Below, piece by piece: positions 21,932 to 58,859 of a DNA stretch of 64,000 bases. The translations under genes were made by a program, and so were the position numbers. Origin of the DNA: Acutalibacteraceae bacterium (lineage in GTDB: Bacteria; Bacillota; Clostridia; Oscillospirales; Acutalibacteraceae); assembly GCA_036309045.1 (NCBI GenBank), contig JAXJUM010000042.1, positions 48,744-112,743 on the forward strand, in the 5' to 3' direction. How positions within the stretch are numbered: position 1 is the first letter of the stretch; every line of letters starts with the position of its first letter. Below the pieces are notes generated by a model. It ran no database searches. It had not been told where the DNA came from and saw only the letters and a program-made list of their open reading frames with translations.

Positions 21932-22129
21932 ATGTGGGAAGAACGCTATCACTTATACATAACAGAAAGCGAGCTTAACACTTTGCTCCGTCTGCTTAAC
22001 GACAATCGAAACGATTTGATAAGTCAGGGACTATATAGCGATGTTCTTGATGATTTGGTTTTGAAAGTAGCTAAAGCACCCAAGAAAAAGATGAAAACTA
22101 TCGAGGGAGGAAATCGTGGTGCAAGGTAA
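21932..22129 (+). CDS. Hypothetical small protein
   Basis: 65-aa ORF that overlaps the start of the coupling protein gene. Confidence 0.4.
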   Translation: MWEERYHLYITESELNTLLRLLNDNRNDLISQGLYSDVLDDLVLKVAKAPKKKMKTIEGGNRGAR

Positions 22130-29662: not shown

Positions 29663-30028
29663 TTGGAAGTGAAAATTAATAGAGAAATCCGCAACTATAC
29701 AGAAGCGGTGTTCTTTGGTCTGTCTCTTCGACAGATCATTTTTTCTGCCTGTGCCTGCGGTGTAGCAGTCCTTATTTTCTTTATGCTAAAGCCGTATCTT
29801 GGTACAGAAACAGTTTCTTGGCTGTGTATGCTTGGTGCTTTTCCTTTTGCCATTCTTGGCTTTGTGAAGTACAACGGCATGACGGCTGAAAAATTTATTA
29901 TGGCTTGGATTAAGTCTGAGCTTTTAACACCTAAAAAACTGATGTTTAAATCTACAAATACTTACTATGAACTTATGAAACAGAACATTGAAAAGAACGA
30001 AAAGGAGGCAATGAAAGTTAATGATTAA
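29663..30028 (+). CDS. PrgI-family (VirB3-like) T4SS membrane protein
   Basis: TTG start 7 nt after AGGAGG, two TM helices, immediately upstream of VirB4-like. Confidence 0.7.
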   Translation: MEVKINREIRNYTEAVFFGLSLRQIIFSACACGVAVLIFFMLKPYLGTETVSWLCMLGAFPFAILGFVKYNGMTAEKFIMAWIKSELLTPKKLMFKSTNTYYELMKQNIEKNEKEAMKVND

Positions 30029-32345
30029 AACCTTAAGAAATTTATTTAAGCAGGACAAGAAAAAGTTTACTGTTCCAAAAGGTGTTCAGGATGTAATTCC
30101 TGTTCAGGCTATTTACGATGATGGTGTTTTCCTTGTTGGTAAGGACAAGTATTCAAAAACTTATAAGTTTACAGATATTAACTATGCAGTAGCGGCTCGT
30201 GAAGATAAGGAAGAAATGTTCCTTGAATACTCAGAACTGCTCAATTCATTCGATAGTGGTGCTACCACTAAAATCACAATCAACAATCGCAGACTTAATC
30301 GTCTAGATTTTGAAAAGTCGATTCTTATTCCTGAAGCTGACGATAACCTTGATGTTTATCGTAAAGAGTACAATAAGATGTTGCTTGAAAAAGCGACAGG
30401 TGCAAATGCTATGGTACAGGACAAGTACATAACAGTTTCGGTATGTAAGAAAAGCATTGAGGATGCACGAAACTATTTCTCTCGTGTAGGTGCAGAGTTT
30501 GCAACTCATCTTAACAAGCTCGGTAGTAGCTGTGTTGAAATGGATACAGATGAACGACTTCGTGTATTCCACGATTTTTATCGTACAGGAGAAGAAAGCT
30601 CTTTCCATTTTGATATTAAAGAGAGCCGAAAGAAAGGTCATAGCTTTAAGGATTATATTTGTCCTGATTCAATGGAGTTTGAAAAGGACTATATCAAAAT
30701 CGGCGACAGATATGCAAGAATCCTTTTTATGAGAGATTACGCATCATATATCAAAGACAGTATGATTGCTGAGATTACCGACCTTAACAGAAATCTTATG
30801 CTTTCCATTGATGTTGTGCCTGTGCCTACCGATGAAGCAGTGCGAGAAGCTGAAAGCCGATTGCTTGGTGTTGAAACAAATATCACTAACTGGCAACGCA
30901 GACAGAACGCAAACAATAACTTCTCTGCAACAGTACCTTATGATATGGAACAGCAGAAGCGAGAGATGAAAGAGTTTCTTGATGACCTTACTACTCGTGA
31001 CCAGCGAATGATGTTTGCTGTTTTAACTATGGTGCATACAGCAGATACAAAAGAACAGCTTGATAGTGATACTGAAGCACTTTTAACTACAGCGAGAAAA
31101 CATCTTTGTCAGTTTGCTGCGCTTAAATTCCAACAGCTTGATGGTTTAAATACTGTAATGCCTTTTGGTGTACGCAAGATTGACAGTTTCCGTACATTGA
31201 CTACGGAATCACTTTCAGTTCTTATGCCTTTCAGAGTGCAGGATGTATTTCATCAGAATGGTATCTACTATGGTCAGAATGTCATTTCAAAGAATATGAT
31301 TGTTGCTGACCGCAGACAGCTTCTTAATGGTAATGCCTTTGTATTAGGTGTATCAGGTGGCGGTAAGTCGTTCTTTGCAAAGGGTGACCTTACTAACTTA
31401 ATGCTTGCAACAGATGCAGATATTATTGTTATTGACCCTGAGCGAGAATACAGTCCTCTCATCAAGGCTCTGGGCGGAGAGGTTATTGATATTTCGGCAA
31501 CGTCAAAGAATCATATCAATGCAATGGATATGTCAAAGGAATATGGTGATGGTGCAAACCCTGTTATTCTTAAATCTGAGTTCATTATGTCATTATGCGA
31601 ACAGTTTATTCCGCTTGGTGCAAAAGAGAAGTCAATCATTGACCGATGTACTGCAAGTGTGTATCGTACATATCAGCAGAATAACTACACAGGCAGAGTT
31701 CCTACTCTTAAAGATTTTAGACAGGAGCTTCTTAATCAGAATGAGCCTGAAGCACAGGCTATTGCTCTTGCTATTGAGTTGTTCACAAATGGTTCTCTCA
31801 ACACATTTGCAAAGCATACCAATGTAGATACAGATAACCGACTTATCTGTTACGATATTCTTGATTTGGGTAAACAGCTTATGCCAATCGGTATGCTTGT
31901 TATCCTTGATAGTATTCTAAACAGAATTACAGAGAACAGAGCAAAAAATAAGACAACATATATCTTTATCGACGAGATTTACTTACTGTTCCAGCACGAG
32001 TATTCAGCAAACTTCTTGTTTACTCTTTGGAAGCGTGTCCGTAAGTATGGTGCTTATGCAACTGGTATTACCCAGAATGTCGAAGACCTTTTACAGAGTC
32101 ACACAGCGAGAACTATGCTCGCAAACTCTGAATTTATCGCTATGCTCAATCAGGCATCAACCGATAGAATTGAGCTTGCAAATCTTCTGAATATTTCAGA
32201 ACAGCAGATGTCGTATATTACGAATGTTGAAGCAGGTTGTGGTCTTATTAAAATCGGTAGTTCGCTTGTGCCGTTTGAGAATAAGTTCCCTAAAAATACA
32301 AAGTTATACAAGTTAATGACAACAAAGCCCGGAGAGAGTGCATAA
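30021..32345 (+). CDS. VirB4-like conjugative ATPase
   Basis: 774 aa with Walker A GVSGGGKS and Walker B IFIDEIY. Confidence 0.9.
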   Translation: MIKTLRNLFKQDKKKFTVPKGVQDVIPVQAIYDDGVFLVGKDKYSKTYKFTDINYAVAAREDKEEMFLEYSELLNSFDSGATTKITINNRRLNRLDFEKSILIPEADDNLDVYRKEYNKMLLEKATGANAMVQDKYITVSVCKKSIEDARNYFSRVGAEFATHLNKLGSSCVEMDTDERLRVFHDFYRTGEESSFHFDIKESRKKGHSFKDYICPDSMEFEKDYIKIGDRYARILFMRDYASYIKDSMIAEITDLNRNLMLSIDVVPVPTDEAVREAESRLLGVETNITNWQRRQNANNNFSATVPYDMEQQKREMKEFLDDLTTRDQRMMFAVLTMVHTADTKEQLDSDTEALLTTARKHLCQFAALKFQQLDGLNTVMPFGVRKIDSFRTLTTESLSVLMPFRVQDVFHQNGIYYGQNVISKNMIVADRRQLLNGNAFVLGVSGGGKSFFAKGDLTNLMLATDADIIVIDPEREYSPLIKALGGEVIDISATSKNHINAMDMSKEYGDGANPVILKSEFIMSLCEQFIPLGAKEKSIIDRCTASVYRTYQQNNYTGRVPTLKDFRQELLNQNEPEAQAIALAIELFTNGSLNTFAKHTNVDTDNRLICYDILDLGKQLMPIGMLVILDSILNRITENRAKNKTTYIFIDEIYLLFQHEYSANFLFTLWKRVRKYGAYATGITQNVEDLLQSHTARTMLANSEFIAMLNQASTDRIELANLLNISEQQMSYITNVEAGCGLIKIGSSLVPFENKFPKNTKLYKLMTTKPGESA

Positions 32346-34777: not shown

Positions 34778-36529
34778 ATGCCTGATATTAAAACAAGAGA
34801 TTTAGTGAAAGGAACTATTAAAACGCTTGATAAAGCTGTTGTAACATCAGAGCGTATGAAACAAGCGTACATTCAAACAAAAGATAAATCAACAGAATCA
34901 GTAAGCTCACAAGATTACTCACCCGAAGATTATGCTTTAACAAAAATTGAAGGAGCCGTTGAAAGCACTGTTAGAGAGACTACACATCAATCTGTTAATC
35001 TCGGTAAAAAGGCGATGAATAAAACTAAAAATGAAGTTAAAAGGCACTTTGAAAACAAAGCAAATAATAATACTCAGGAGATGGGACGTAATACCGCTAA
35101 AAAAACTACAGTTCAAAAGAGTAAACAAGCCCATTCCCAAAAAATTCGTACCGCTGAACAGACTACAAAAGGTGTGAAACAGACGGCAAAAAGCACAGGT
35201 TCAAAGGCGATAAAGACAGCACAGAAAGGTACGGTCAAAACTGCAAAAACAAGTGTTAAGACAGCCGAAAAGACCTCAAAGGCAGCTATTAAAACTGCCG
35301 AAAAATCCGCAAAGGCGGCTAAAGAAGCGGCAAAAGCATCAGCAAAAGCCGCAGAAAAAGCAGCTCAGGCTGCAAAGGCTACAGCACAAGCAGCTGTCAG
35401 GGCTACAAAGATTGCAATTAAAGCTGTTATTGCGGCTATAAAAGCAATTATCGCAGGTGTTAAGGCTTTAGGTGCGGCGATTGCCGCAGGTGGTTGGGTT
35501 GCAGTTATTATAATTATTGTTATTTGCCTGATTGCTCTTATTGTCGGTTCTTGTTACGGAATATTTTTTGCAGGAGAGGACTCAGGTTCGGGTATTACAT
35601 TACCATCAGCTATAAGCGAAATTAACGGAGAATACAATCAACAGATTGAACAGTTAAAAAGTGATAATCCACACGATATTCTTGAAATGTCAGGAACAAA
35701 AGCCGAGTGGAAAGAGGTTATTGCAATTTATGCTGTTGATAAAACTATGGCTGACCTTAACCCTGCTAACCCTGATGAAGCTCAGCAGGTTGCCACTATG
35801 GATGAAGAGAAAAAGGAATACCTGAAAAATCTCTTTTGGGAAATGAATAAAATCGAGCATCGCACCGAAACGAAAACAGTTACGGAAACTGTTGAGGAAG
35901 TTCGGGATGATGGTAGTGTAGAGTTGGTTGAAAGGGAGGTTGAAAAAACCACTTTATATATTACTGTTACACACATCAGCCTTGAAGAAATGATGTCTCA
36001 GAAAAATTTCACGGATGTACAAAGAGATATGGTATATGAACTTCTCGCTGATGAAAACAATATCTTATGGCTTGATGCACTGCACGGAATTACCAGCTCA
36101 GATACAGAAATTGTAAGCGTTGCTCAAGCACAGATAGGTAACGTTGGCGGACAACCTTACTGGAGTTGGTACGGATTCGGTTCTCGTGTAGAATGGTGTG
36201 CCTGTTTTGTTTCTTGGTGTGCAAATGAGTGTGGATACATTGATGCAGGACTTATTCCAAAATACGCAGTGTGTGATACAGGTGTATATTGGTTTAAGGA
36301 GAGAGGTGAATGGGTTGAGGGTACTGAAGAACCTAAACCCGGTATGATAATCTTCTTTGATTGGGAATACGATGGTTTGGATGGAAACTCCGACCACACA
36401 GGTATTGTAGAAAAAGTTGAAGGTGGTAGAGTATATACGATAGAGGGCAATGCGAGTGACTCTTGTATGGAGTGTTCCTACCCTGTAGGTTATTATGAGA
36501 TATTAGGCTATGGAGCCCCTGCGTATTAA
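34778..36529 (+). CDS. T4SS-associated peptidoglycan hydrolase with C-terminal CHAP domain
   Basis: Lys/Ala-rich repeats, one TM segment and CHAP motifs (WCACFVSWC and DHTGIV...IEGN). Confidence 0.8.
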   Translation: MPDIKTRDLVKGTIKTLDKAVVTSERMKQAYIQTKDKSTESVSSQDYSPEDYALTKIEGAVESTVRETTHQSVNLGKKAMNKTKNEVKRHFENKANNNTQEMGRNTAKKTTVQKSKQAHSQKIRTAEQTTKGVKQTAKSTGSKAIKTAQKGTVKTAKTSVKTAEKTSKAAIKTAEKSAKAAKEAAKASAKAAEKAAQAAKATAQAAVRATKIAIKAVIAAIKAIIAGVKALGAAIAAGGWVAVIIIIVICLIALIVGSCYGIFFAGEDSGSGITLPSAISEINGEYNQQIEQLKSDNPHDILEMSGTKAEWKEVIAIYAVDKTMADLNPANPDEAQQVATMDEEKKEYLKNLFWEMNKIEHRTETKTVTETVEEVRDDGSVELVEREVEKTTLYITVTHISLEEMMSQKNFTDVQRDMVYELLADENNILWLDALHGITSSDTEIVSVAQAQIGNVGGQPYWSWYGFGSRVEWCACFVSWCANECGYIDAGLIPKYAVCDTGVYWFKERGEWVEGTEEPKPGMIIFFDWEYDGLDGNSDHTGIVEKVEGGRVYTIEGNASDSCMECSYPVGYYEILGYGAPAY

Positions 36530-36567: not shown

Positions 36568-36635
36568 CGTTATAGCGATTTGTTGACAGTGCTCAAGACT
36601 AATTCTATAATATTAATATAAAGATTTAATGGTGG

Positions 36636-37337
36636 ATGATTAGTATGATATATGTAATATCTGATTTGCACGGCTATCCTTTTGATAAATTCCAAGAGCT
36701 ACTGAATAAAGCGAACTTTTCAAAGGATGATTATTTGTTTATACTCGGTGATGTAATTGATAGAGGAATGTATGGCACAGAATATTTAAAGTGGCTTTTG
36801 TATCAAGAAAATGTTGAATTGCTTCTTGGAAATCACGAAGCTATGTTACTTTCGTGCAGTTTCCTTTTTGAAGAGGTTAATGAAGAAAATTTGCAAAATC
36901 TAACTCCTGAGAGTTTAGAACTTCTTGCTAATTGGAAGGATAATGGTGCTAAGTGGACTTTAGAGGGCTTTTATGCTATGGAACAGGAAGATAGGATTAG
37001 TATTATTGAATATCTTCGTGAAGCACCTTTGCATGAGATTGTGTCTGTGAATAATAAAGATTATATGCTAACTCATAGTGGCTTGGGTGGTTTTGCAGTT
37101 GGTAAGAAAATATCTTCTTATACAGCCGATGAACTACTATGGAACAGACCAAAACTTAGTGATAGGTATTATGACAATATGACAACCATTTTCGGTCACT
37201 CACCTACGTTTATGTATGGTGATGAGCATAACGGTAAGATTATAAAAACAGACACTTGGATAAACATTGATGTCGGTACAGGTTACGGATATTCTCCTGT
37301 ATTATTACGATTAGATGATATGAAAGAATTTAGATGA
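36636..37337 (+). CDS. PPP-family metallophosphoesterase (Ser/Thr phosphatase or ApaH-like), cargo
   Basis: The DLHG, GDVIDRG and GNHE motifs are present. Confidence 0.75.
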   Translation: MISMIYVISDLHGYPFDKFQELLNKANFSKDDYLFILGDVIDRGMYGTEYLKWLLYQENVELLLGNHEAMLLSCSFLFEEVNEENLQNLTPESLELLANWKDNGAKWTLEGFYAMEQEDRISIIEYLREAPLHEIVSVNNKDYMLTHSGLGGFAVGKKISSYTADELLWNRPKLSDRYYDNMTTIFGHSPTFMYGDEHNGKIIKTDTWINIDVGTGYGYSPVLLRLDDMKEFR

Positions 37338-37367
37338 AATAAAAACTAAGATATAGGAAAACTCCGC

Positions 37368-37718
37368 TCACTTTTCTGTGGGCGGAGTTTTTTCGCTGAA
37401 AAGACCATTACATTGGTCAACAATGCTTTCGATTATTCTTATTTGTGCCGGTTCTAAATTTCTTAATTTGTCGGATAAAATCAGTAAGTCTTTATCTACA
37501 ATATCTCCTGTTAGTAAATAGTCAGCACTGACATTCAATGCTTTTGACAATTTCAATAAATTCTCTGGACGCATTGCACGTTTTCCTGATTCAGCATAGG
37601 ATACAAATTGAGGTGTTAAATCGGCATTTTCTGCAAGTTCTTCTTGTGTCCAGCCAAGTCGCTTTCTTAATTCCGTGATTCTGACACCTATTTCCTGTAA
37701 ACAAATATCAGTTTCCAT
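37368..37718 (-). CDS. XRE-family HTH transcriptional regulator
   Basis: Start set at METD. The HTH is WTQEELAENADLTPQFVSYAESGKR. Confidence 0.75.
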   Translation of the reverse strand: METDICLQEIGVRITELRKRLGWTQEELAENADLTPQFVSYAESGKRAMRPENLLKLSKALNVSADYLLTGDIVDKDLLILSDKLRNLEPAQIRIIESIVDQCNGLFSEKTPPTEK

Positions 37719-37857
37719 AATAGCACCCCTACCTTTCAATATCGTCTTGTTAAATTATATCCACAAATCAAGAAATATTTAATCGTTAATTGTTGATTTA
37801 TGTACACAACACGATATATAATATAGATGCTATTTACTATAAGTGTGGTGGATAAAA

Positions 37858-38298
37858 ATGAGCACGAATGAAAGAGCTTGTTGTTTTTTGGGACATAGGG
37901 TTGTGACGGAGGATATATATGATAGATTGAAAGAAGAAATCGAAAATTTGATAATAAATGAAAAAGTAACAACTTTTTATATAGGTCATCAGGGAGCTTT
38001 TGATGGGATGGTGCTGTCGGTATTAAAATCAATGAAAGATAAGCACCCACAAATAAAATATAGTGTTGTACTTGCATATTTGCCAAATAGTGTAGATTCT
38101 TTGTTGGACGAAAAAAACACCCTCTATCCAGAAGGAATAGAGAGCGTACCTAAACGTTTTGCTATATCATGGCGTAATGATTGGCTGATAAGCCATTCTG
38201 ATTATGTGATTTGTTACATAACACATATAACAGGAGGTGCTGTGAAATATGTCACAAAAGCTAAAAATAAAGGGAAATACATTATAAATCTTTCGTAG
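37858..38298 (+). CDS. SLOG-fold DUF1273 (YoqJ-like) protein
   Basis: Start at the ATG at 37858. Product carries CCFLGHR, HQGAFDGM and WRNDWLISHSDYVICY. Its last codons lie inside the left inverted repeat. Confidence 0.6.
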   Translation: MSTNERACCFLGHRVVTEDIYDRLKEEIENLIINEKVTTFYIGHQGAFDGMVLSVLKSMKDKHPQIKYSVVLAYLPNSVDSLLDEKNTLYPEGIESVPKRFAISWRNDWLISHSDYVICYITHITGGAVKYVTKAKNKGKYIINLS

Positions 38299-38316
38299 AG
38301 TATTCCCCTTAACGAA
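38291..38316. repeat. Left 26-bp inverted repeat of a recombinase-bearing invertible segment
   Basis: TTTCGTAGAGTATTCCCCTTAACGAA. Its reverse complement matches 39686-39711 with 1 mismatch. Confidence 0.8.
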
Positions 38317-38344
38317 CATAAACATAACAATTATTATGCTTAAA

Positions 38345-38373
38345 ATTATACATCTTGTTGCTAGATTTGTCAA
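38345..38373 (-). promoter_or_regulatory. Consensus sigma-70 promoter (TTGACA-17 nt-TATAAT) firing leftward out of the invertible segment
   Basis: On the minus strand TTGACA is at 38373-38368 and TATAAT at 38350-38345, with a spacer of exactly 17 nt. It lies 28 nt from the inner edge of the left repeat. Confidence 0.65.
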
Positions 38374-38507
38374 CGAGTTTTGATGAGTTTTGTATAATAA
38401 TATCAGTTTATGTTTAAATGCTTTGTACATGATGTCTGTAATTGTAATGTTTTTGTTTTATTAGCCGTCAAAATTGTCGTCACTTGATATTTAGAAAGGA
38501 TGGTAAG

Positions 38508-39623
38508 ATGTCAAGAAAAGGTGAAAATATATACAAAAGGAAAGATGGACGATGGGAAGGAAGGTTTATAAAGAGGTATGAGCCTACTGGGAAAGCCAAA
38601 TATGGGTATGTTTATGCTAGAACATATAGGGATGTAAAGAGCAAATTGGAGGTCGCAAAAACAAATCATTCACGGTTTAACGATACCAACGATGCAACAT
38701 ATTGTGAACTACTTGATAAATGGTTAGCTTGCAAAAAGCGAGAAGTGAAATATTCGTCTTATATAAGATATAAAAATACGATTGAAAATCATATTAAGCC
38801 AGAACTCGGAAATATGAAAGTAAAAAGTATTTCAGCTGAAATACTTCAAGAGTATTTAAAAGTAAAATCTGAAAATGGACGGATTGATAGGACAGGAGGT
38901 TTATCTAACAAGTCTTTATCAGACATTCTAGTAATAATAAAAGAAACACTTAAATTTGGTAATGTGTACGATACAAGCATTATCAATTTAAAAGCCACTG
39001 CTTCGCAAAAGCATAAATCAATGAGAGTATTGAACGAAAAAGAGCAAACTAACTTAACAATAACTTTATTAAACGATACTGATATATACAAAATGGGAGT
39101 TTTGATATGTCTTTATACTGGCATTAGAATAGGTGAACTCTGTGCTTTAAAATGGTCTGATATTTCTTTAGAAAACAAAGTGATTAACATTAATAAAACT
39201 CTACAAAGACTTCCTAACACCAATCCAGAAGCTAATGCAAAAACTACTCTTTTTACATCAGAACCTAAAAGTGACTCTGGAAACAGAATTATCCCAATAC
39301 CGGAATTTCTATATACTATAATTCTCCCCTTTAGGAAACAGGACGAAATGAATGTGATATCTACAGATAAAAAACCTTTGATTGAGCCAAGAACAATGCA
39401 AAACTACTTCAAAAAGTATTTAGCAGAAAGTAATATATCGGATGCTAATTTTCATTCATTAAGGCACACCTTTGCAACGAGGTGCATAGAAGTGGGATTT
39501 GATATAAAAACGCTAAGTGAAATTCTTGGTCATTCTAGTGTAAAAATCACACTAGATAGATATGTTCATTCATCTTTAAATCTAAAAAAGCTAAATATGC
39601 AAAAACTAAAATTTGCAATCTAA
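38508..39623 (+). CDS. Tyrosine recombinase (phage-integrase family) inside the invertible segment
   Basis: N-terminus MSRKGENIYKRKDGRWEGRF, plus C-terminal HSLRHTFATR and LGHSSVKITLDRYVH catalytic motifs. Confidence 0.85.
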   Translation: MSRKGENIYKRKDGRWEGRFIKRYEPTGKAKYGYVYARTYRDVKSKLEVAKTNHSRFNDTNDATYCELLDKWLACKKREVKYSSYIRYKNTIENHIKPELGNMKVKSISAEILQEYLKVKSENGRIDRTGGLSNKSLSDILVIIKETLKFGNVYDTSIINLKATASQKHKSMRVLNEKEQTNLTITLLNDTDIYKMGVLICLYTGIRIGELCALKWSDISLENKVININKTLQRLPNTNPEANAKTTLFTSEPKSDSGNRIIPIPEFLYTIILPFRKQDEMNVISTDKKPLIEPRTMQNYFKKYLAESNISDANFHSLRHTFATRCIEVGFDIKTLSEILGHSSVKITLDRYVHSSLNLKKLNMQKLKFAI

Positions 39624-39647
39624 TAGCCGTCAAAAATATAGTCAACG

Positions 39648-39688
39648 AAGCAACAACTCCTCTATAAATGCTGAGTTGTTGCTTTTTC
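39648..39688 (+). terminator. Rho-independent terminator after the recombinase gene
   Basis: 11-bp perfect stem AGCAACAACTC/GAGTTGTTGCT followed by TTTTT, abutting the right repeat. Confidence 0.7.
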
Positions 39689-39711
39689 GTCAAGGGGAAT
39701 ACTCTACGAAA
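39686..39711. repeat. Right 26-bp inverted repeat
   Basis: TTCGTCAAGGGGAATACTCTACGAAA, the partner of 38291-38316. Confidence 0.8.
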
Positions 39712-39732
39712 ATAATGTGAAGGAAAAATCAA

Positions 39733-40074
39733 ATGGACAATACTGGCAGAAAAAATTATATGAATTATTGGAATTTTTCTAAAGAAGAAAAAAATCAACT
39801 GATTGCACACCTAACAAAAGAACTTCCCACATTAAGGGGAGCCGCTAAAGCTACCCAGGATGAAATTGCGAATATAATTGGAGTATCCCGACAAACATAC
39901 AATGCAATTGAAATGCAAAAAAGAAAAATGAGTTGGAATACATATATGTCATTGATATTGTTTTTCGATTATAATCCCAATACGCATTATACAATTAGAC
40001 AATTGGATGTTTTTCCATATCAGTTAGATGAGTGCTGGCTGTCAGGTAAACTTGAACAGTATAACGGAGAATAA
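39733..40074 (+). CDS. HTH (XRE-like) regulator, first gene of the large locus
   Basis: Product carries ATQDEIANIIGVSRQTYNAIEMQKR. Confidence 0.6.
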   Translation: MDNTGRKNYMNYWNFSKEEKNQLIAHLTKELPTLRGAAKATQDEIANIIGVSRQTYNAIEMQKRKMSWNTYMSLILFFDYNPNTHYTIRQLDVFPYQLDECWLSGKLEQYNGE

Positions 40075-40077
40075 TTT

Positions 40078-40305
40078 ATGGGAATTGAAGTTATAAAAAA
40101 AGATATACAAATTTTCCAGTCTTCTATCAAAAATTTAAGTGCTGGAATAAGTCGTGCTTCATCCTTATGGAAGGATGAAAAATATTCTGAACTTTCAGCT
40201 TCGATAAGAGAAGTTGCTAATAATTCAAAAAATGTTATTGTTACTGGTGACAGGTGTTGCTCAACGGTAGATAAATTTATCAAAATAGCAGCAGAAAAAT
40301 ATTAG
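40078..40305 (+). CDS. WXG100-like small helical protein (W-K-D-x-K-Y family)
   Basis: 75 aa with a central SLWKDEKYSEL. It is a paralogue of 42753 and of the toxin N-terminal domains. Confidence 0.6.
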   Translation: MGIEVIKKDIQIFQSSIKNLSAGISRASSLWKDEKYSELSASIREVANNSKNVIVTGDRCCSTVDKFIKIAAEKY

Positions 40306-40316
40306 GAGGTCATAGT

Positions 40317-41063
40317 GTGGTTGATGTAACAACAGAAGCATTAGAAATGGTAAAAAATGCTTTAACGACCTTTCAATCCGATATAAATGGTTTATCTATG
40401 CGTGCAACTAATCAAGCTGAAAAAATTACAGAAGAATGTAAAAATCATATAAAACAAGCAAAAACTGAAATAGCTCAAATTGAAACACAAATTTCTGCAT
40501 TAAATAAACAAATTTCTGAATTAAACGAGAAGATTGAGCAGGCGACAAGTCAATATAATACTATACTTACAAGGATTCCTCAATTAGAGAATAATATACG
40601 TTCCATAAATTCGAGAATTTCAGTACTGAACTCGCAAATAGCCTCGTTAAGATCTCAACTTGCAAATACAGAAGATGATGATGAACGTCAACAAATACAA
40701 GAACAAATCAATGTGGTAAGTCATCAGGTTGCTCAATACGAATCAGAACGAAATCGGTTAGAAATTGAATTGCAAAATTCTGAGCAACAAAAGAACGAAC
40801 TTCAACAAACTATAAATTCAGCTAAGTCAAAAAAAGCTCAATGTGAAAGTGAATTGTCAGTTCAAAAGAATAGATGTAATAGAATGAAAGACAAGCTTGA
40901 ACGTTTAAAAACAACATTTAGTAGAGTTGAATTGGATTTGAATGCTTATGTTGTTGCTACCCAAAAATTCGAAAGAAATTCAAGTGTAGAAACTCAAAAC
41001 CACAATAATTCCATTGGTAAGTGCATAGATAGTATAGAACAATATTTATCTGCTTCGATTTAG
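40317..41063 (+). CDS. Coiled-coil protein (hypothetical)
   Basis: GTG start 7 nt after AGGAGG. 248 aa with Q/N/E-rich heptad-like sequence. Confidence 0.55.
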   Translation: MVDVTTEALEMVKNALTTFQSDINGLSMRATNQAEKITEECKNHIKQAKTEIAQIETQISALNKQISELNEKIEQATSQYNTILTRIPQLENNIRSINSRISVLNSQIASLRSQLANTEDDDERQQIQEQINVVSHQVAQYESERNRLEIELQNSEQQKNELQQTINSAKSKKAQCESELSVQKNRCNRMKDKLERLKTTFSRVELDLNAYVVATQKFERNSSVETQNHNNSIGKCIDSIEQYLSASI

Positions 41064-41110
41064 AGCGCCTTCGTTAATAATACAGTAATAGACAAAGGGG
41101 AATATATTAG

Positions 41111-42223
41111 GTGAATAAAGAAAAAAACACTTTTAGAAGCAATGATGCTTTTCCGCAATCAGTGAATAATCAGTTTTGGAACGATCTTAGAAAACAGGCT
41201 GCTAATAATTATATACCAATACATGGTCATTTTGAAATTACTCCTCGATGTAATCTGAATTGTAAGATGTGTTACGTACATTTGAATAATACTCAGATGG
41301 GTAAACTAAATGAATTACCATTTTTAAAATGGAAAGAAATCGTGGACCAAGCTATTCACATGGGAATGCTTTTTGCATCAATTTCAGGGGGAGAATGTTT
41401 AACTAGTCCATATTTTGATGAACTATATTTGTATTTGAAATCTAAAGGAATTATTGTCTTTGTTTTAACAAATGGAGTTTTGCTAGATAAAAAAATATCA
41501 TTGTTTGAAAAATATCCGCCTGCATTGATTCAGGTTTCTGTGTATGGTTATGATAAAGCTAGTTATATAGCGGTTACTGAAAAAGATGAATATGATAATG
41601 TTTCAAACTCTATCGAAAAAGCACATAAATTAGGATTGCCTATTAGTGTAGCTGTTACTGCAAGTAGATATTTACCATCTGTTTATGAAATAGTTAAAAA
41701 GTATTATGAAATCGGCATCGGTGTTACTGTAAATAGATGGATAATGCCTCCATACGAATCTACAGGTAGAAAATTTGGTGATATAAATCTATCTCCTGAT
41801 GAGCAGGTTAATATTTCAAAAGAAATACTTCAAGCAACAGAACAAGAATTAATACCTTGTCCAGTTGAACCTCTGCCAAAACCAATTATGTTTTTGAAAG
41901 ACAGAGCACCTAAAAAAGGATTACTTTGTGCTGCTGGAAGAAGTGATTTTAGTATAAATTGGAAAGGAGAAATGAGCTTATGTGTTTCTTTAAATACTCC
42001 TACAGGATACCCTTTGATAGATGGTTTTAAAAAAGCTTGGGAACAAACTGTAATAGCAAGTAAGGAATTCTTAATGCCAGTTGAGTGTTATGAGTGTAAA
42101 TACTTAAAAGTATGCAATCGCTGTCCGGCACAACATTTAATAAATAATCTACCCGGACATTGTAATCCAGCGGTGTGTGAAGAAGGCATACTGATGGTTA
42201 AAAACGGATTAGTTTCTTTATAA
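41111..42223 (+). CDS. Radical SAM enzyme with C-terminal SPASM-like Cys cluster
   Basis: CNLNCKMC (CxxxCxxC) at about 41249-41272, and a C-terminal CYECKYLKVCNRCPAQ. Confidence 0.8.
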   Translation: MNKEKNTFRSNDAFPQSVNNQFWNDLRKQAANNYIPIHGHFEITPRCNLNCKMCYVHLNNTQMGKLNELPFLKWKEIVDQAIHMGMLFASISGGECLTSPYFDELYLYLKSKGIIVFVLTNGVLLDKKISLFEKYPPALIQVSVYGYDKASYIAVTEKDEYDNVSNSIEKAHKLGLPISVAVTASRYLPSVYEIVKKYYEIGIGVTVNRWIMPPYESTGRKFGDINLSPDEQVNISKEILQATEQELIPCPVEPLPKPIMFLKDRAPKKGLLCAAGRSDFSINWKGEMSLCVSLNTPTGYPLIDGFKKAWEQTVIASKEFLMPVECYECKYLKVCNRCPAQHLINNLPGHCNPAVCEEGILMVKNGLVSL

Positions 42224-42237
42224 AGGAGGTGTAAATT

Positions 42238-42354
42238 ATGTATGAAAAGCCTGTAGCTATCAAAGTGGATTTTACTTACGAGATAGCTTTCGCAAAGAAA
42301 TGTCACTTTGCAGATTACGGAGAGTGCTCTCCAAGTGAACAGCAGTATAAATGA
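42238..42354 (+). CDS. 38-aa candidate RiPP precursor peptide
   Basis: AAAGGAGG lies 8 nt upstream. Product MYEKPVAIKVDFTYEIAFAKKCHFADYGECSPSEQQYK. Followed by a hairpin. Below the ORF-track cutoff. Confidence 0.5.
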   Translation: MYEKPVAIKVDFTYEIAFAKKCHFADYGECSPSEQQYK

Positions 42355-42371
42355 TTGCTAAGTTAAAAAAT

Positions 42372-42401
42372 GAGCGGCAAACGCTCGTTAGTTTGTCGCT
42401 C
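42372..42401 (+). terminator. Hairpin (attenuator or partial terminator) after the precursor ORF
   Basis: 11-bp stem GAGCGGCAAAC/GTTTGTCGCTC (one G-U pair), 8-nt loop and a weak T-tract. Confidence 0.45.
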
Positions 42402-42423
42402 ACATTTTTAGGAGAGTTTGAGT

Positions 42424-42702
42424 ATGTGTAAATATTTCAATAGTGAAAATTATATTTGCAGACAATTAGTAGATAATATTTTACTTTTTCCTGTAAGTCA
42501 GGAAGTGAGTGACTTTCAGGGAGGCGTAATTTTAAATAGAGTATCCCATTTTGTGTGGAAGTTATTATCTGTTCCTTGTACAAAAGATGAGATTGTGAAT
42601 GCTGTATCTCAGGAGTTTAATGCGGATATAGCTATGGTAGAAACAGATATTGAAGAACTTTTAAACAGTTTTATAGAAATGAAAATTGTTAAAGTTGAAT
42701 AA
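42424..42702 (+). CDS. PqqD-family (RRE-type) peptide chaperone
   Basis: Product carries ILNRVSHFVWKLLSVPCTKDEIVNAVSQEFNADIAMVETDIEELLNSFIEMKIV. Confidence 0.65.
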   Translation: MCKYFNSENYICRQLVDNILLFPVSQEVSDFQGGVILNRVSHFVWKLLSVPCTKDEIVNAVSQEFNADIAMVETDIEELLNSFIEMKIVKVE

Positions 42703-42752
42703 AGTAAATCGAAGGGCACGTTACCCTAAATGATAAATAAGGAGGTCTATAA

Positions 42753-43034
42753 ATGGCAAATGGTGTATCTGTAGAGAGTGCAGCCATACAGGGCGGAATT
42801 GGATGTTGTAAAACATCAATTCATGAATTAGAGACTGCATCGAGGAATTTGCAAAGAAGCTATCAGCAAGCAGGTTCAGGAGGATGGAAAGACCAAAAGT
42901 ATGCTGCATTAGGTGGTATAGTTGAAGAATGTTGCAGTGCTTTAACAAAACCTATTTCCGAACTACAGGATTGTATGGTTAAACTGAATGATTTGCTTAA
43001 AGCAGTTGGCGATTACGAGCAAGTCAATTTATAA
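42753..43034 (+). CDS. WXG100-like small helical protein (W-K-D-x-K-Y family)
   Basis: 93 aa with a central GGWKDQKYAALGGIVEEC, ending YEQVNL just as the toxin N-domains end. Confidence 0.65.
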   Translation: MANGVSVESAAIQGGIGCCKTSIHELETASRNLQRSYQQAGSGGWKDQKYAALGGIVEECCSALTKPISELQDCMVKLNDLLKAVGDYEQVNL

Positions 43035-43049
43035 GGGAGGTAAAAAAGT

Positions 43050-43319
43050 ATGGCAGTAAAAGCTTCCCCTGAAACAATTAGGGAGATGAAAAAAGAGATT
43101 TCTAATACCATTCGAGATATTGAGAGAATCAGCAGTGGTATTAAGACAGGAATGTCAGCAACATCTAATTGGGATGATGCTAAAGCAGCTCAATTTAACA
43201 TGTTGATGCAACAGATTGCAAGGTTAACATCGACACCTATAGAAACGTTGAATGCAGCTTTACCGAAATTGGAAAAGTTAGCACAGTCATTAGATCAATA
43301 CAATAGAGTTAAATTCTAG
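43050..43319 (+). CDS. WXG100-like small helical protein (W-D-D variant)
   Basis: 89 aa with a central SNWDDAKAAQF. Confidence 0.55.
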   Translation: MAVKASPETIREMKKEISNTIRDIERISSGIKTGMSATSNWDDAKAAQFNMLMQQIARLTSTPIETLNAALPKLEKLAQSLDQYNRVKF

Positions 43320-43338
43320 ATTAAGGAGGAATTATAAA

Positions 43339-44259
43339 ATGGCTAATGAACAAAAGATAACAAATGGCGTGGATGCTATTCCTACATTTACCCCGCCGTC
43401 ATCAAATGAAAATCAAACTGGAGGAAAGAGCGATGCTATTCCTACTTTCACACCTCCAACCCCTACATTTACCCCACCACAGAATGTGAAACCACAATTT
43501 AATGGACCTGCATGCTATTATCACAAGGACGAGCCTGCTGTAGCTAAATGTGCTAGATGCGGTAAATTTATTTGCCAAGATTGTTTTGATAATTATGGTG
43601 TATCAAGTGGAGATTATGCTGGTAAAGCATTGTGTTATGACTGTTGTCAGCAAATTGTAGCAGCAAATGTCGTTGATTTAAAAAAGAACAAAAATAAGAT
43701 TATGTTTCAGTTTATTATATCGATTATTGGTATGGTTTTTGGTATGATAGTTGGTATAGCAAGTGGCGGTGGCTTTGCAGGTGCGGTTATTGGTATAGCT
43801 ATAGGCGGAGTTCTGTTGAGTGCAATAAAAGTATTTTTCTCTTTGGTATGGGATGTTATTAAGATTGCCTTTTCTGGTCAATTTGGTATATTAACGATCT
43901 TCTCAATCATTTTTAACATTATTGTTTTAATAATCAAATGCTTGATAACTACAATTTCTAACACTTTCTATTACATATCTTATTTAATTAAGACGTCGGG
44001 ATTTATTGCCTCTGATGAAGCAGCTTTAAGGCAAATGGCTGACTATATGGAATATACAATGATACGTAATCAAAATAGAGGCGTTGATCTTGAAACCCTT
44101 CTTAATCAAAAGAGCGAACTCGCCGACAACTCTTATGCTCGTATGGTTCAAGAAAAAGGTGAAGAAGGTGCAGAAGCAGCACTTAGAAATTGCGTTGCAA
44201 CAATTAATGAAAATGGTGAAATCATTAGAAACTTCAATATTGCAGGTAGAGCTGCTTAA
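43339..44259 (+). CDS. Membrane protein with N-terminal Cys-rich zinc-binding (B-box-like) module
   Basis: DAIPTFTPP occurs twice. CYYHKDEPAVAKCARCGKFICQDC...CYDCC is followed by 3-4 TM helices. Confidence 0.6.
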   Translation: MANEQKITNGVDAIPTFTPPSSNENQTGGKSDAIPTFTPPTPTFTPPQNVKPQFNGPACYYHKDEPAVAKCARCGKFICQDCFDNYGVSSGDYAGKALCYDCCQQIVAANVVDLKKNKNKIMFQFIISIIGMVFGMIVGIASGGGFAGAVIGIAIGGVLLSAIKVFFSLVWDVIKIAFSGQFGILTIFSIIFNIIVLIIKCLITTISNTFYYISYLIKTSGFIASDEAALRQMADYMEYTMIRNQNRGVDLETLLNQKSELADNSYARMVQEKGEEGAEAALRNCVATINENGEIIRNFNIAGRAA

Positions 44260-44314
44260 AATTTACAAAAGTTATATGAAATTAAAATACTTAATATAAA
44301 CAGGAGGATTAAAT

Positions 44315-44488
44315 ATGGATAACAATATAAATAGCGATGCAGTTGCAGCAAGAAGAAGAGCTTTGGCAGAAGCTTTGCGTACAGGTGAACCCGTTGTAGT
44401 AACCGCAAGTGGTGAAGTTGAAAAAAAGGATGATGCGGTAGACCAAGGCTTATCTGGTATTCAAGTTCCTGAGGGTAAATTAGCGTAA
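44315..44488 (+). CDS. 57-aa protein immediately upstream of the E2-like gene (candidate modifier or adaptor)
   Basis: CAGGAGGA RBS. Product MDNNINSDAVAARRRALAEALRTGEPVVVTASGEVEKKDDAVDQGLSGIQVPEGKLA. Below the ORF-track cutoff. Confidence 0.5.
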   Translation: MDNNINSDAVAARRRALAEALRTGEPVVVTASGEVEKKDDAVDQGLSGIQVPEGKLA

Positions 44489-44500
44489 GGAGGGAATACA

Positions 44501-45046
44501 ATGGCTTATTATTGGTATCAAAGCGACCCACAGCTGTACCAAATGGAAGTTGCAGCTATGAGGAAGTTTTTTCCATCATTCACCATAAATCAGCTCCAAG
44601 ATGGTTCAGGAAGATTGTACTGGAGAGGTAAAGTTCAACCTACAGGAGAAGGTGGTATGGTTTGGGATTTGATGTTGATTTACAAAAACACACATCCTAG
44701 AGCAGAAGGTTATGGTGGCTCTATCCAAATACTTCCTCTGCAACCTAGATTAAAAGATTTAGCTGACAATATAATGCCATCGATTCTGCAACAATATAAT
44801 AACAATATGGATACTTTGTATGCCAAAGGGTTGCAGTTAGGTCTTCCTCATGTATATCATGATAAGTTTGGACGTAATGAAGAATATTTTATTTGTAGTG
44901 CAGATCCTAAGTTTTTTAAAGCGGGACAAAATCAGTCTACTTCAGCAGCTTCAGCTTTGAGTTGGGCTTGCAAATGGATTATTCTTTGTGAGATGTGGTT
45001 GAATGGTGAAATCGGCGATGATGTCGCTTTAGAAGGTAACTATTAA
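44501..45046 (+). CDS. Prokaryotic E2 (UBC-fold)-like protein
   Basis: 181 aa. LPHVYHDKFGRNEEYFICSADP mirrors the HPN...C catalytic arrangement of E2s. Gene context is E2-JAB-E1. Confidence 0.55.
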   Translation: MAYYWYQSDPQLYQMEVAAMRKFFPSFTINQLQDGSGRLYWRGKVQPTGEGGMVWDLMLIYKNTHPRAEGYGGSIQILPLQPRLKDLADNIMPSILQQYNNNMDTLYAKGLQLGLPHVYHDKFGRNEEYFICSADPKFFKAGQNQSTSAASALSWACKWIILCEMWLNGEIGDDVALEGNY

Positions 45047-45047
45047 A

Positions 45048-46133
45048 ATGATTATACCTCCAAACTCTCTTGCAAAGCTAAAGGGAGTTTGGAGGTTTTG
45101 TTATAGGCTGGAGGTTTATCAAATGAGAGTAGTTTTTTCAAACAGAGCATACGCTTCTGTTTTAGCTGAAACAACTGAAAAGATTAAAACGGAAACCGGT
45201 GGTTTGTTTTTAGGAACGGTGCAGGATGATACTTGGTATATTATTGAAGCCATAGACCCCGGCCCAAAGTCAATTTTTCAAGTTGCATATTTTGAATATG
45301 ATCAAAAATATACCCAACACCTAATTAATAAAATTGCGAATCTGTATGATAGTCGACTGTCCTTAATTGGTTTATGGCATCGTCATCCCGGATCATTTGA
45401 TCAATTTTCATCAACAGATGATGGTACTAATGCTCAATATGCATCTATGAGAGAGGAAGGTGCAATTTCAGCTTTAGTAAACATTGATCCAAGTTTTAGA
45501 ATTACGATGTATCAGGTCGAAAGACCTTGCCGTTATAGAAAGATAGCATATGATGTTGGCGATAACCTTATTCCTGATAAGTTTTTGAGATTCAAAACAC
45601 CAGAAAGATATTATTCCATTATGAATAATATTCTTTATCCATCTACAACTGGAGGAGACGTGAATGACGGATACCACAAATCAGTTAGTTTGGCATCTTT
45701 TATGAAATTTATTCTGCCACAGATGAAAGATGACGAATGTACAGATGTTGAAACAAACAATTTACTTGGCGATGAATCTACACAAGAACAGCTTATTGAT
45801 GAAATTGTGGATGATTTGACATTTATGGCGGATACAATTGGTATTGAAACCGCTATGTCGCTTGATAACAATTACCTTACTGTTTATCAAGAAGCAATAG
45901 ATAAAACAACAAAGCTGTATTTTATGCTTTCCATTGTTAAACACGATATTATTCTTTCCTATGAAAATAAGTGCTACATATATCGCAAAGGATTATTTAT
46001 GGAAGCTTTCGGGAAAGCAAAAGCTGAGCAAGATAGAAAAGATAATAGTGAAAACAGAACAAAACATAGAAAAAAAGCAGGAGTCATTGATTCCGTTATT
46101 AAAATAATTAGATTTAACAGAAACGAGGAATAG
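45048..46133 (+). CDS. JAB/MPN (JAMM) metallopeptidase-domain protein
   Basis: Product carries AETTEK...GLWHRHPGSFDQFSSTD (E, HxH, S, D). An alternative start at 45123 follows GGAGG. Confidence 0.75.
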   Translation: MIIPPNSLAKLKGVWRFCYRLEVYQMRVVFSNRAYASVLAETTEKIKTETGGLFLGTVQDDTWYIIEAIDPGPKSIFQVAYFEYDQKYTQHLINKIANLYDSRLSLIGLWHRHPGSFDQFSSTDDGTNAQYASMREEGAISALVNIDPSFRITMYQVERPCRYRKIAYDVGDNLIPDKFLRFKTPERYYSIMNNILYPSTTGGDVNDGYHKSVSLASFMKFILPQMKDDECTDVETNNLLGDESTQEQLIDEIVDDLTFMADTIGIETAMSLDNNYLTVYQEAIDKTTKLYFMLSIVKHDIILSYENKCYIYRKGLFMEAFGKAKAEQDRKDNSENRTKHRKKAGVIDSVIKIIRFNRNEE

Positions 46134-46137
46134 TAAT

Positions 46138-47292
46138 ATGGGAATAAAAAGACCTAAAAATTTCTTCGGTGAGGATATACCGCTTACAGTTTTTATATCC
46201 GAAGAACAGCTCCACAATAGAGAGTGCGTAAAAGTTTTTGGTAAGTATTTTGAAGATACAGGAATTTTCAATGTGCTACCTTCTGAATTATTTGACAAAG
46301 GTAAATATCTGGGTGATGTTCTTCCTGAAGGTAGCTCACCTGCCGAAGACGGCTTCTGCGGTATAATTACCGAAGAGGGTATTGATTTTTATTGGAGTGG
46401 CGAAAAGATCGTAACCGAGTCTTATGGACTTTACCAAAGTATTTTTTCGAGAAATAAGGGGATTCTTGAAACCGATGTTATGAAGAAAAAATGTGCCGTA
46501 ATTATAGGTTGCGGTTCTGTTGGTAGCTTGGTTGCAATGGAATTAGCAAGAGCAGGCGTTGAAAAATATGTGCTGTGTGATGCGGATACTCTTGAGTACC
46601 ACAATGTGTGTCGTCATCAGTGCGGCATTGAGGATGTTGGAGATCTCAAAGTAAATGCACTTAAAAGAAAAATTCTTAATATCAATCCAAAAGCGAATGT
46701 AAAGACTTTTGGAGGTATCATTCAGAATATCCCTAAAGAAATTCTTGATGAAATGTGTACTCCATTTGAAACAATCTTTGTTGGTTGTGGAGATAATCGT
46801 GCGGCTGATGTTTACGCTAACAAAATTGCTGTTTATTTTGATGCTGCATTTATTTCGATTGGCTTTTGGGAAAGAGCTTATGCAGGAGAAATCTTCTACC
46901 ACATTCCCTATAAAAATATGCCGTGCTACCAGTGTGCATTAGGTAGCGGAGATATGTCAGGTCGTGTTGAGGCAAATCACCACGTTTATTCCAACCAAGA
47001 GAACATTGAAAATCTGAAATTCGAACCCGGCATTTCTGTTGATATAAACTTTATTACAAGCGTTGGTATTAAATTGATAATTGATATTCTTAATTCAACA
47101 AATGAAGGATATATTCCTCGCTTGCTTAATAACTTGAAACAGTACACCCTCATTTGTAATACGAGCGATCCTGCCATCGGTGGAGAAATGGTTGAAATCT
47201 TTAGCTATCCGTTACAAGTAACCACTTCACTCGTAGTTGGCTTCGGAAAAGACTGTAACGGTGAGTGCAATTATGAATTGGAAGAAAAGTAA
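46138..47292 (+). CDS. E1-like (ThiF/MoeB/HesA family) adenylating enzyme
   Basis: Product carries VIIGCGSVGSLVAMELARAGV...LCDADTLEYHNVCRHQ and a CYQC zinc motif. Confidence 0.75.
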   Translation: MGIKRPKNFFGEDIPLTVFISEEQLHNRECVKVFGKYFEDTGIFNVLPSELFDKGKYLGDVLPEGSSPAEDGFCGIITEEGIDFYWSGEKIVTESYGLYQSIFSRNKGILETDVMKKKCAVIIGCGSVGSLVAMELARAGVEKYVLCDADTLEYHNVCRHQCGIEDVGDLKVNALKRKILNINPKANVKTFGGIIQNIPKEILDEMCTPFETIFVGCGDNRAADVYANKIAVYFDAAFISIGFWERAYAGEIFYHIPYKNMPCYQCALGSGDMSGRVEANHHVYSNQENIENLKFEPGISVDINFITSVGIKLIIDILNSTNEGYIPRLLNNLKQYTLICNTSDPAIGGEMVEIFSYPLQVTTSLVVGFGKDCNGECNYELEEK

Positions 47293-47319
47293 TCCTATTC
47301 AGGAGAAAGGAAGGCGTTT

Positions 47320-51711: not shown

Positions 51712-51788
51712 ATGTGTGGATATGCCATATACACAGAGGTTTACCCCTTTGTGTATATGGCTAATTCCAAAAGAAGGAGCGAGGGAAA

Positions 51789-52580: not shown

Positions 52581-52585
52581 ACGTT

Positions 52586-53512: not shown

Positions 53513-53787
53513 TTATTGATGGACATAAATCCATAGAAGAACTACAAGAATTGCGATATAACTATCACAAAGATATTGCACAGTTAGAAGAAATGCATTC
53601 TCGACTTAGAGAAAGATATTCAAAACTTTCTGAAATCAATGATAATAGGCACATCTATGAACTTTTGGAACTAACTGTCGATAGCTTAAGAAGTGTCGAA
53701 GAAGCATTACATAAACTACACGAAGCAGATGCAGGTGCCGAGAAACTGATCGAACTTTATCAGGCATACTTAAAGGTTGAACTATAA
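53509..53787 (+). CDS. Small helical protein (hypothetical; possible secretion chaperone or adaptor)
   Basis: 92 aa, start overlaps the upstream stop (ATGA), predicted all-helical. Confidence 0.5.
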   Translation: MIIDGHKSIEELQELRYNYHKDIAQLEEMHSRLRERYSKLSEINDNRHIYELLELTVDSLRSVEEALHKLHEADAGAEKLIELYQAYLKVEL

Positions 53788-53814
53788 TTGATTTTTTGCA
53801 AAGGAGGGATTTGC

Positions 53815-54789: not shown

Positions 54790-54797
54790 GTGCAGTG

Positions 54798-55271: not shown

Positions 55272-55303
55272 GAAATATCATCGCTTAAAGGAGGTGTAAG
55301 CTA

Positions 55304-56356: not shown

Positions 56357-56359
56357 CTT

Positions 56360-58858: not shown

Positions 58859-58859
58859 A

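Follow-up and report, generated by a model that had tools for sequence, protein, structure and literature searches.

A candidate self-contained promoter inverton with an integrase-type tyrosine recombinase on a conjugative element of gut Clostridia

Results

A 1.4-kb segment of DNA from an Acutalibacteraceae bacterium (Bacillota; Clostridia; Oscillospirales) is very likely an autonomous invertible promoter cassette carried by an integrative conjugative element, where it separates the conserved backbone of that element from its variable cargo. The segment occupies positions 38291-39711 of the 64,000-nt stretch that we analysed as a whole (hereafter the window; NCBI GenBank assembly GCA_036309045.1, contig JAXJUM010000042.1, positions 48,744 to 112,743 of the forward strand). 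Inverted repeats enclose a tyrosine recombinase gene and a predicted promoter that is directed out of the segment. We hold with high confidence that the segment inverts and with good confidence that this inversion would act as an ON/OFF promoter switch for the adjoining cargo genes, although this second part is unproven.

Both orientations occur between the same flanks

The preliminary description of this DNA had proposed that inversion brings the promoter before the cargo, and had named related assemblies as a place in which to look for both orientations. Homologue scans of genome and metagenome collections bear out this proposal, as both orientations were found, with the break at the repeats. 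The segment is in the window's orientation in locus L002, whose recombinase is 95% identical to that of the window, and it is flipped in locus L003, whose recombinase protein and whose backbone and cargo flanks are identical to those of L002; here the sequences break at the repeats. It is also flipped in L005, an NCBI assembly with a recombinase 91% identical to the window's, and in this case the perfect promoter faces a 99-aa helix-turn-helix (HTH) gene at the head of another cargo (DO-GTPase2, GrpE, HSP70, VWA).

A metagenome scan for the exact 26-nt repeat retrieved a second lineage, in which the recombinase is only ~53% identical to that of the window. Seven complete loci of this lineage (L088, L089, L090, L093, L097, L099 and L102) are in the window's state, read below as OFF, and one (L091) is flipped into the state read as ON, with flanks as in the OFF loci, and L094 and L103 carry the two alternative junctions on the same backbone flank. 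In the flipped relatives L005 and L091 the promoter points toward the first cargo gene as assembled. Both orientations between the same flanks, the mark of an inverton, are therefore seen across related assemblies (L002 versus L003; L005; L089 versus L091), and we infer that the segment also switches in the strain sequenced here.

Remnants with a single repeat were observed as well: L087 and L101 have kept the terminator end beside the cargo and have lost the recombinase (frozen OFF), L095 and L100 have the promoter end beside the cargo with ~25 recombinase codons left (frozen ON), and in L092 and L096 an unrelated zinc-finger open reading frame (ORF) comes after the promoter end.

The ends of short contigs provide a further view of the junctions. 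For 27 of the 120 best homologues, the longest contig measures 1420-1490 nt, the size of the segment from repeat to repeat, and five of the six such short contigs that we examined start and end at the repeats, with contig-end offsets of 0/4, 0/4, 0/4 and 0/0 nt for 26-nt repeats and of 3/0 nt for a 27-nt repeat. Logan assemblies use k = 31, and an offset of 0 or of 30 minus the repeat length fits a k = 31 assembly graph that branches at the outer edge of the repeat. This pattern fits the presence of both junction types in those samples.

Two other explanations of the orientation differences can be weighed at this point. Since assemblers can be misled by inverted repeats and assemblies of metagenomes are prone to error, the differences might be assembly artefacts. 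However, at only 26-27 nt the repeats are shorter than usual k-mers and should not by themselves interrupt or invert a unique path. Moreover, each state was found repeatedly in independent assemblies from different sources (Logan, ENA, NCBI, JGI), and the single-repeat remnants are frozen in both states. An assembly artefact is accordingly hardly credible. Alternatively, the segment could be a small transposable or other mobile element whose orientations go back to independent insertions instead of inversion in place. Terminal inverted repeats that bracket one recombinase gene would suit such an element, contigs that hold the element and nothing else are also typical of multi-copy insertion sequences, and across the wider group described below the cassette stands beside many unrelated genes. 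Yet the two orientations occur at the same junctions to the base, and insertion at the same base in either orientation across several lineages is far less likely than inversion. Moreover, the sequences flanking the segment, ATAAATC and ATAATGT, hold no target-site duplication, the window has one copy of the segment and no solo ends, and the repeats are built as crossover sites, with a free 7-nt spacer that is identical from arm to arm. We consider independent insertion very improbable, and the lack of a target-site duplication, the single copy in the window and the shared junctions in both orientations set the segment apart from insertion sequences and transposons.

Anatomy of the segment

All parts that the preliminary description had assigned to the segment are in place (Table 1). 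The inverted repeats (38291-38316 and 39686-39711), announced as a 26-bp pair with one mismatch, are 26 nt long and complementary at 25 of 26 positions, and they are the sole two copies in the 64-kb window at no more than three mismatches, where 100 shuffles gave an expectation of 0. The right repeat differs from the left by one base (G versus A), which falls within the inner half-site and not within the central 7 nt. Between the repeats, the gene at 38508-39623, which is intact, is the sole credible one. The minus-strand promoter, which had been described as a perfect TTGACA-17-TATAAT, is the only 12/12 match in a 3-kb region (37300-40400) and lies 28 nt from the left repeat; its sequence (38345-38373) is identical in L002-L006 and also a 12/12 match in L089. 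As had been estimated, inversion would leave 75 nt (28 + 26 + 21) between the end of the -10 box and the ATG at 39733.

Past the recombinase gene, where a terminator had been claimed, folding reveals a 13-bp hairpin with a T-run, and the 95-nt region around it folds at -24.7 kcal/mol (z = -4.2). We relied on folding because a simple terminator scan, whose loop limit is 8 nt, missed this hairpin. Hairpins of -14 to -25 kcal/mol are found at the same end in both lineages that share the 26-nt repeat. The 12-nt direct repeat reported to flank the recombinase ORF (TAGCCGTCAAAA, at 38462-38473 and 39623-39634) is present and belongs to a 24-nt repeat (38459-38482 and 39621-39644), the downstream copy of which overlaps the recombinase stop codon and has the orientation of the upstream copy. 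The tandem motif within these copies is partly like the CGTCAA of the inner half-site. On the backbone side, the promoter as sequenced faces a terminator-like hairpin within the neighbouring YpsA-like gene, and the second lineage has two terminator-like hairpins with T-runs on the same side, less than 100 nt from the repeat (L089 7190-7210 and 7257-7276). Transcripts of the OFF state may end at the hairpin 38147-38117.

Table 1. Features of the invertible segment and of the surrounding conjugative element (window coordinates)
Feature	Position	Strand	Details
Coupling protein	22116-23918		Conjugative element backbone
VirB4-like ATPase	30021-32345		Conjugative element backbone
CHAP hydrolase	34778-36529		Conjugative element backbone
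YpsA/SLOG-like gene	37843-38298	+	End of conserved backbone; 3' end overlaps left repeat by 8 nt
Terminator-like hairpin inside YpsA-like gene	38117-38147	-	13 pairs, then TTTTTTT; ~200 nt downstream of outward promoter as sequenced
Left inverted repeat, complete core recombination site	38291-38316	+	Outer half-site TTTCGTAGAG 38291-38300; central 7 nt TATTCCC 38301-38307; inner half-site CTTAACGAA 38308-38316
Predicted outward promoter, sigma-70 type	38345-38373	-	TTGACA 38373-38368, 17 nt, TATAAT 38350-38345
Upstream candidate arm-type site	38459-38482	+	Tandem CCGTCA 38465-38470 and TCGTCA 38477-38482, 12 nt apart; 26-49 nt before recombinase ATG
Tyrosine recombinase gene, intact	38508-39623	+	371 aa; N-terminal beta3-alpha, SAM-like core-binding and catalytic domains
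Downstream candidate accessory site	39621-39644	+	Tandem CCGTCA 39627-39632 and TAGTCA 39639-39644, 12 nt apart
Terminator-like hairpin past recombinase gene	39647-39689	+	13-bp stem 39647-39685, then TTTTT; T-run enters right repeat
Right inverted repeat, second core site	39686-39711	-
Small HTH gene, first target gene	39733-40074	+	113 aa; ATG 21 nt past right repeat
Cargo locus	40078-57800	+	Genes co-directional with HTH gene
Element's own integrase	60748-61905		Far end of element

The recombinase is related to lambda-type integrases

The Pfam scan of the recombinase returned tyrosine recombinase domains only, namely Phage_int_SAM_3 and Phage_integrase (PF00589, E = 1.6e-27), and no domain of the serine recombinase (resolvase) type. 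Across 29 aligned homologues, the catalytic residues R207, K254, H316, R319, H342 and Y352 do not vary. In an AlphaFold model (mean pLDDT 79.5), strands at residues 8-10, 16-24 and 30-37 precede a helix at 40-53; the top Foldseek matches are Tn1549 Int and then full-length lambda Int, and 6EN0 matched at E = 1e-19. As modelled, the recombinase has the same three-domain build as integrases that bind sites of the arm type and of the core type simultaneously.

None of the NCBIfam models reaches its cutoff for this protein. The FimB and FimE models (NF007370 and NF007371) score 27.1 and 19.7 bits against cutoffs of 221 and 222, with ~40 residues matched, and the integron-integrase model TIGR02249 scores 53 bits against 265. 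By sequence and predicted structure, the recombinase resembles the Tn1549 and lambda integrases and not FimB/FimE. The earlier wording of a "fimS-like" switch hence holds as an analogy of mechanism and fails as a family assignment, since the protein is a three-domain relative of the lambda/Tn1549-type integrases.

The architecture is conserved in a wider group from Clostridia

The genome scan gave 80 loci from Lachnospiraceae, Oscillospiraceae, Ruminococcaceae and other Clostridia, with recombinases 37-54% identical to that of the window. Repeats of 17-32 nt bracket the gene in ~59 of 77 evaluable loci; they lie 170-280 nt before the start and 40-135 nt past the stop, which yields segments of 1.38-1.6 kb. 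Each repeat is a dyad of TTTCG(C/T)AGAG, 7 nt and the complement, that is, a 10-7-10 core site, and 7 nt is the best-fitting spacing in 50 of 56 loci. Positions 12-16 of the repeat have an entropy of 1.4-2.0 bits between loci, but the two arms of one locus are 96-98% identical there. A spacer that is free between loci and yet matched within a locus is the signature of a crossover region, in which strand exchange needs a match. At three loci the core site is duplicated in tandem, giving repeats of 54-73 nt (L037 5687-5740, L057 3054-3126 and L071 5750-5805), and such duplications could allow alternative crossover points.

The other parts of the cassette recur as well. The best minus-strand promoter match scores at least 10/12 in 46 of 62 loci and mostly lies 20-40 nt from the repeat, whereas plus-strand matches across the group are weaker and scattered. 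Tandem (C/A/G)(C/A/G)GTCA motifs are confined to the coding strand. Upstream of the gene they number 101 versus 3 by strand, are found in 56 of 58 loci at 20-100 nt from the start codon, and are spaced by 12 nt in 59 of 69 pairs; downstream they number 71 versus 1 and directly follow the stop codon in 47 of 58 loci. These repeats are probably arm-type sites, and their conservation lends support to the accessory role that had been suggested for the direct repeats. A hairpin of -12 kcal/mol or stronger is present at the 3' end of the recombinase gene in 21 of 58 loci versus 2 of 58 at the promoter end, in a test that used fixed windows and imprecise repeat boundaries; the terminator is thus common and enriched but not universal, with its conservation limited to the nearer relatives.

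Genes that adjoin the segment across the group encode XRE and TetR regulators and HU, FHA, HSP70, SpaA-like, Wzy_C and dockerin proteins. These varied neighbours indicate that the module is a general-purpose switch and is not specific to secretion. Similarly, a hidden Markov model built from three HTH target proteins found the HTH gene beside the cassette in nearer relatives only, so this gene is not a universal partner of the module.

A model for switching

On the basis of this anatomy, we propose that the recombinase binds the two ~10-nt half-sites of each repeat and that crossover takes place in the central 7 nt, such that recombination between the repeats would flip the 1.4-kb segment. Because the two core sites are mutually inverted, the segment is flipped and not excised. 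The tandem CCGTCA-type repeats at both ends of the gene would serve as arm-type sites for the N-terminal domain of the recombinase, and since these accessory repeats, the recombinase gene and the terminator all lie inside the segment, their geometry is unchanged after every flip. Viewed in this manner, the cassette would resemble an attL/attR pair with the arm sites inside and with one core site inverted.

The arrangement as sequenced would be the OFF state: the promoter is directed into the convergent YpsA-like gene at its 3' end, toward the terminator-like hairpin there, and the recombinase terminator stands between the segment and the cargo, where it would end recombinase transcription and shield the cargo. 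The ATG of the HTH gene follows only 21 nt past the right repeat, which leaves no room for a cargo promoter outside the segment. After inversion (ON), the promoter would lie ~75 nt upstream of the HTH ATG at 39733 and read into a secretion and toxin locus of ~18 kb.

Several observations weigh against this model or limit it. The exact window recombinase was found on one other contig only (L001, 1780 nt); this contig matches the window without a difference, has the segment in the window's orientation and so says nothing on flipping. SRR24599528 is the single run in which sequence identical to the window was found. The two orientations are known from separate assemblies, not from one culture or sample, and the contig-end pattern is supporting and not decisive because one cassette in different contexts within a sample can give the same pattern. 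The single mismatch between the left and right repeats, albeit outside the central 7 nt, is not present in relatives. The promoter and both terminators are predictions from consensus or folding only, and a search of the plus strand from the outward promoter to the recombinase ATG yielded just weak matches to a promoter for the recombinase gene, at no conserved position. Cargo genes may have internal promoters, in which case OFF need not mean silent. Finally, genes read away from the segment on both sides in ~20 of 62 group loci, according to a rough census of ATG-only ORFs.

This last count also bears on the possibility of a two-way selector, in which the promoter has a target on the backbone side too, either as a source of antisense RNA against the YpsA-like gene or by read-through into an XRE repressor gene (37368-37739), with flipping that alternates the regulatory state of the backbone with cargo expression. 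The minus-strand XRE gene is indeed downstream of the promoter as sequenced, and a transcript from the promoter to the hairpin 38147-38117 would run antisense over the final ~180 nt of the YpsA-like gene. On the other hand, T-run hairpins face the promoter before any gene in both lineages, the neighbouring gene on the backbone side has a convergent orientation in all near relatives as in the window, and the XRE gene is more than 600 nt away with a divergent intergenic region of its own. We judge a two-way selector unlikely for the window, although the gene arrangements suggest that some members of the group may switch between two targets instead of ON and OFF. For the segment in the window, we continue with an ON/OFF switch of the cargo.

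The conjugative element, its backbone and its cargo

The window holds an integrative conjugative element of a low-GC Firmicute, with backbone genes for conjugation and an integrase of its own at the far end (Table 1). The cassette recombinase and this integrase (60748-61905) are separate genes and, at 29% identity, distant paralogues. The last backbone genes before the cassette are a metallophosphatase gene, the minus-strand XRE regulator gene (37368-37739) and the YpsA-like gene. A second perfect TTGACA-17-TATAAT is found on the plus strand at 36583-36611, just before the metallophosphatase gene (36636), and is kept in L002 (1769-1797).

Beyond the cassette, the cargo encodes WXG100-like proteins, a radical SAM protein with a PqqD-like partner, a JAB protein, a ThiF/E1-like protein, a 1463-aa FtsK/EssC-like ATPase, LXG-like toxins and an M48 peptidase. 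From strand and spacing, these genes are presumably co-transcribed with the HTH gene. Type VII-like parts in the cargo (39733-57800) are mixed with the radical SAM/PqqD pair, the JAB and ThiF/E1-like proteins and with B-box and zinc-ribbon membrane proteins, and small ORFs accompany the LXG-like toxins downstream; Pfam recognised no EssA, EssB or EsaA homologue in this cargo. This locus is possibly a secretion or conflict system of an unusual kind. At its right end (58133-61905), the element has genes for an ImmA/IrrE-like M78 peptidase, a MazF/PemK-like toxin and its own integrase.

The boundary at the cargo-side repeat is sharp. The YpsA-side backbone flank has 93% DNA identity to the window in L002 and L005, and the cargo of every near relative begins with a homologous HTH gene. 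The cargo of L002 (4942-12817) has radical SAM and NUDIX genes and a gene for a large protein, and that of L005 (1-7757) encodes DO-GTPase2, GrpE, two HSP70s and a VWA protein, so that near-identical cassettes and backbones are joined to wholly different cargo, each headed by a homologous small HTH gene. In the second lineage (L088-L103), the 26-nt repeat is identical to that of the window, including the 7-nt spacer TATTCCC. Such identity in two lineages suggests recent exchange of the site, or else selection for compatibility between elements.

These observations raise the question of whether the cargo-side repeat is an additional site-specific docking or exchange point, akin to an integron platform, at which whole cargo loci are swapped between elements. 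Three unrelated cargo loci are found with recombinases of 91-95% identity and backbones of 93% identity, similarity at the DNA level does not extend past the outer edge of the cargo-side repeat, and lineages with ~53% identical recombinases share the 26-nt repeat including its otherwise free spacer. The ON geometry, too, is integron-like, with a recombinase gene, a divergent promoter, a site and variable genes in that order. However, the far ends of the cargo loci showed no second site and the window no further copy, homologous recombination in the flanking backbone could swap cargo too, and the match to the integron-integrase model is far below cutoff, with no cassette-like repeats seen. Exchange at this repeat is therefore an improbable addition to promoter inversion. 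As to an integron platform proper, TIGR02249 reached 53 of 265 bits and the window contains neither further sites nor cassette repeats, and we do not count the cassette as one.

With more reserve than the promoter switch itself, we put forward a broader and only tentative view, which we would sooner doubt than adopt. In this view, the cassettes would make up a large and so far undescribed class of portable promoter modules in gut Clostridia that flip themselves, derived from a domesticated lambda/Tn916-type integrase in an attL/attR-like layout with one core site inverted, and the cargo-side site would in addition be a fixed exchange junction on conjugative elements. Cargo exchange at that site would explain both why the cargo differs past the repeat and why the 26-nt site is identical despite 53% recombinase identity.

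Discussion

If the ON/OFF model is correct, an apparent secretion and toxin locus of 18 kb on a conjugative element is under heritable and reversible control. The host population could then hedge between the cost of the system and its silence, and the switch would move with the element into new hosts. In Lachnospiraceae, Oscillospiraceae and Ruminococcaceae, the same module is found upstream of many kinds of genes, among them those for regulators, for surface proteins and for further conflict systems. At ~1.4 kb and seemingly carrying everything that is needed, it would be a candidate compact genetic switch for Gram-positive anaerobes, as well as a natural example of an integrase system rewired from excision to inversion.

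Invertible promoters are already known, as are recombinases carried inside the invertible segment, as in Hin. We found no published account of a self-contained promoter inverton that combines an integrase-type tyrosine recombinase with internal candidate arm-type repeats, occurs widely in gut Clostridia and is located at the cargo junction of conjugative elements, although an earlier description is possible, our coverage of subscription journals being thin. More than 75% of invertons were shorter than 300 bases in the work on DeepInverton, which was trained on those only (PMC11602134). A cassette of 1.4 kb is outside the range of such short-inverton surveys, and if the model holds, phase variation in gut Clostridia may exceed what these surveys suggest.

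The system to which the segment was initially likened is fimS of Escherichia coli, where a tyrosine recombinase (FimB, FimE) likewise inverts a promoter-bearing element for ON/OFF phase variation of the downstream operon. FimS measures 314 bp with 9-bp repeats, and FimB and FimE, of ~200 aa, are encoded outside the element. By contrast, the recombinase described here has 371 aa and its gene lies between the repeats. Such placement is shared with phase-variable Type I restriction loci such as pneumococcal ivr/creX, in which a tyrosine recombinase gene is located between the inverted repeats that its product recombines. Those loci shuffle hsdS coding segments and thereby specificity, whereas the inversion described here turns a promoter around and leaves the coding sequences as they are.

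Among invertons of gut Clostridia, group 139 has been linked to the tyrosine recombinase invertase group 35 (Microbiome 2025, PMC11892184). The likeness extends to the hosts, to 26-nt repeats in one example and to the tyrosine-type recombinase gene, and orientation ratios in that group shift in culture (PMC11892184). Unlike our cassette, the group 139 invertons are ~250 nt long and have the recombinase nearby, not inside; this comparison is one of description and not of sequence.

In domain composition, the recombinase is like lambda Int and the Int proteins of Tn916 and Tn1549, with N-terminal beta3-alpha, core-binding and catalytic domains. The core sites similarly comprise two half-sites around a 7-nt centre, and candidate arm-type repeats lie within the element as they do in attL and attR. 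These integrases, however, carry out integration and excision with directly oriented sites, whereas the sites described here are inverted and bracket their own recombinase gene, and the products observed are inversions.

The closest match in architecture is the Hin segment. The H segment of Salmonella (hixL - hin - promoter - hixR, upstream of fljBA), with its relatives Gin, Cin and Pin, is a self-contained invertible segment of ~1 kb, and Hin has been cited as an example of a recombinase located inside the invertible segment (PMC5903667). As in the cassette, the recombinase gene and an outward promoter lie within the Hin segment, the adjacent operon is driven in one orientation, and the Hin sites are 26 bp long. 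Hin, though, is a serine recombinase that needs a Fis-bound enhancer, while the cassette has a tyrosine recombinase of the three-domain integrase build, with tandem repeats at both ends of the gene as its candidate accessory sites.

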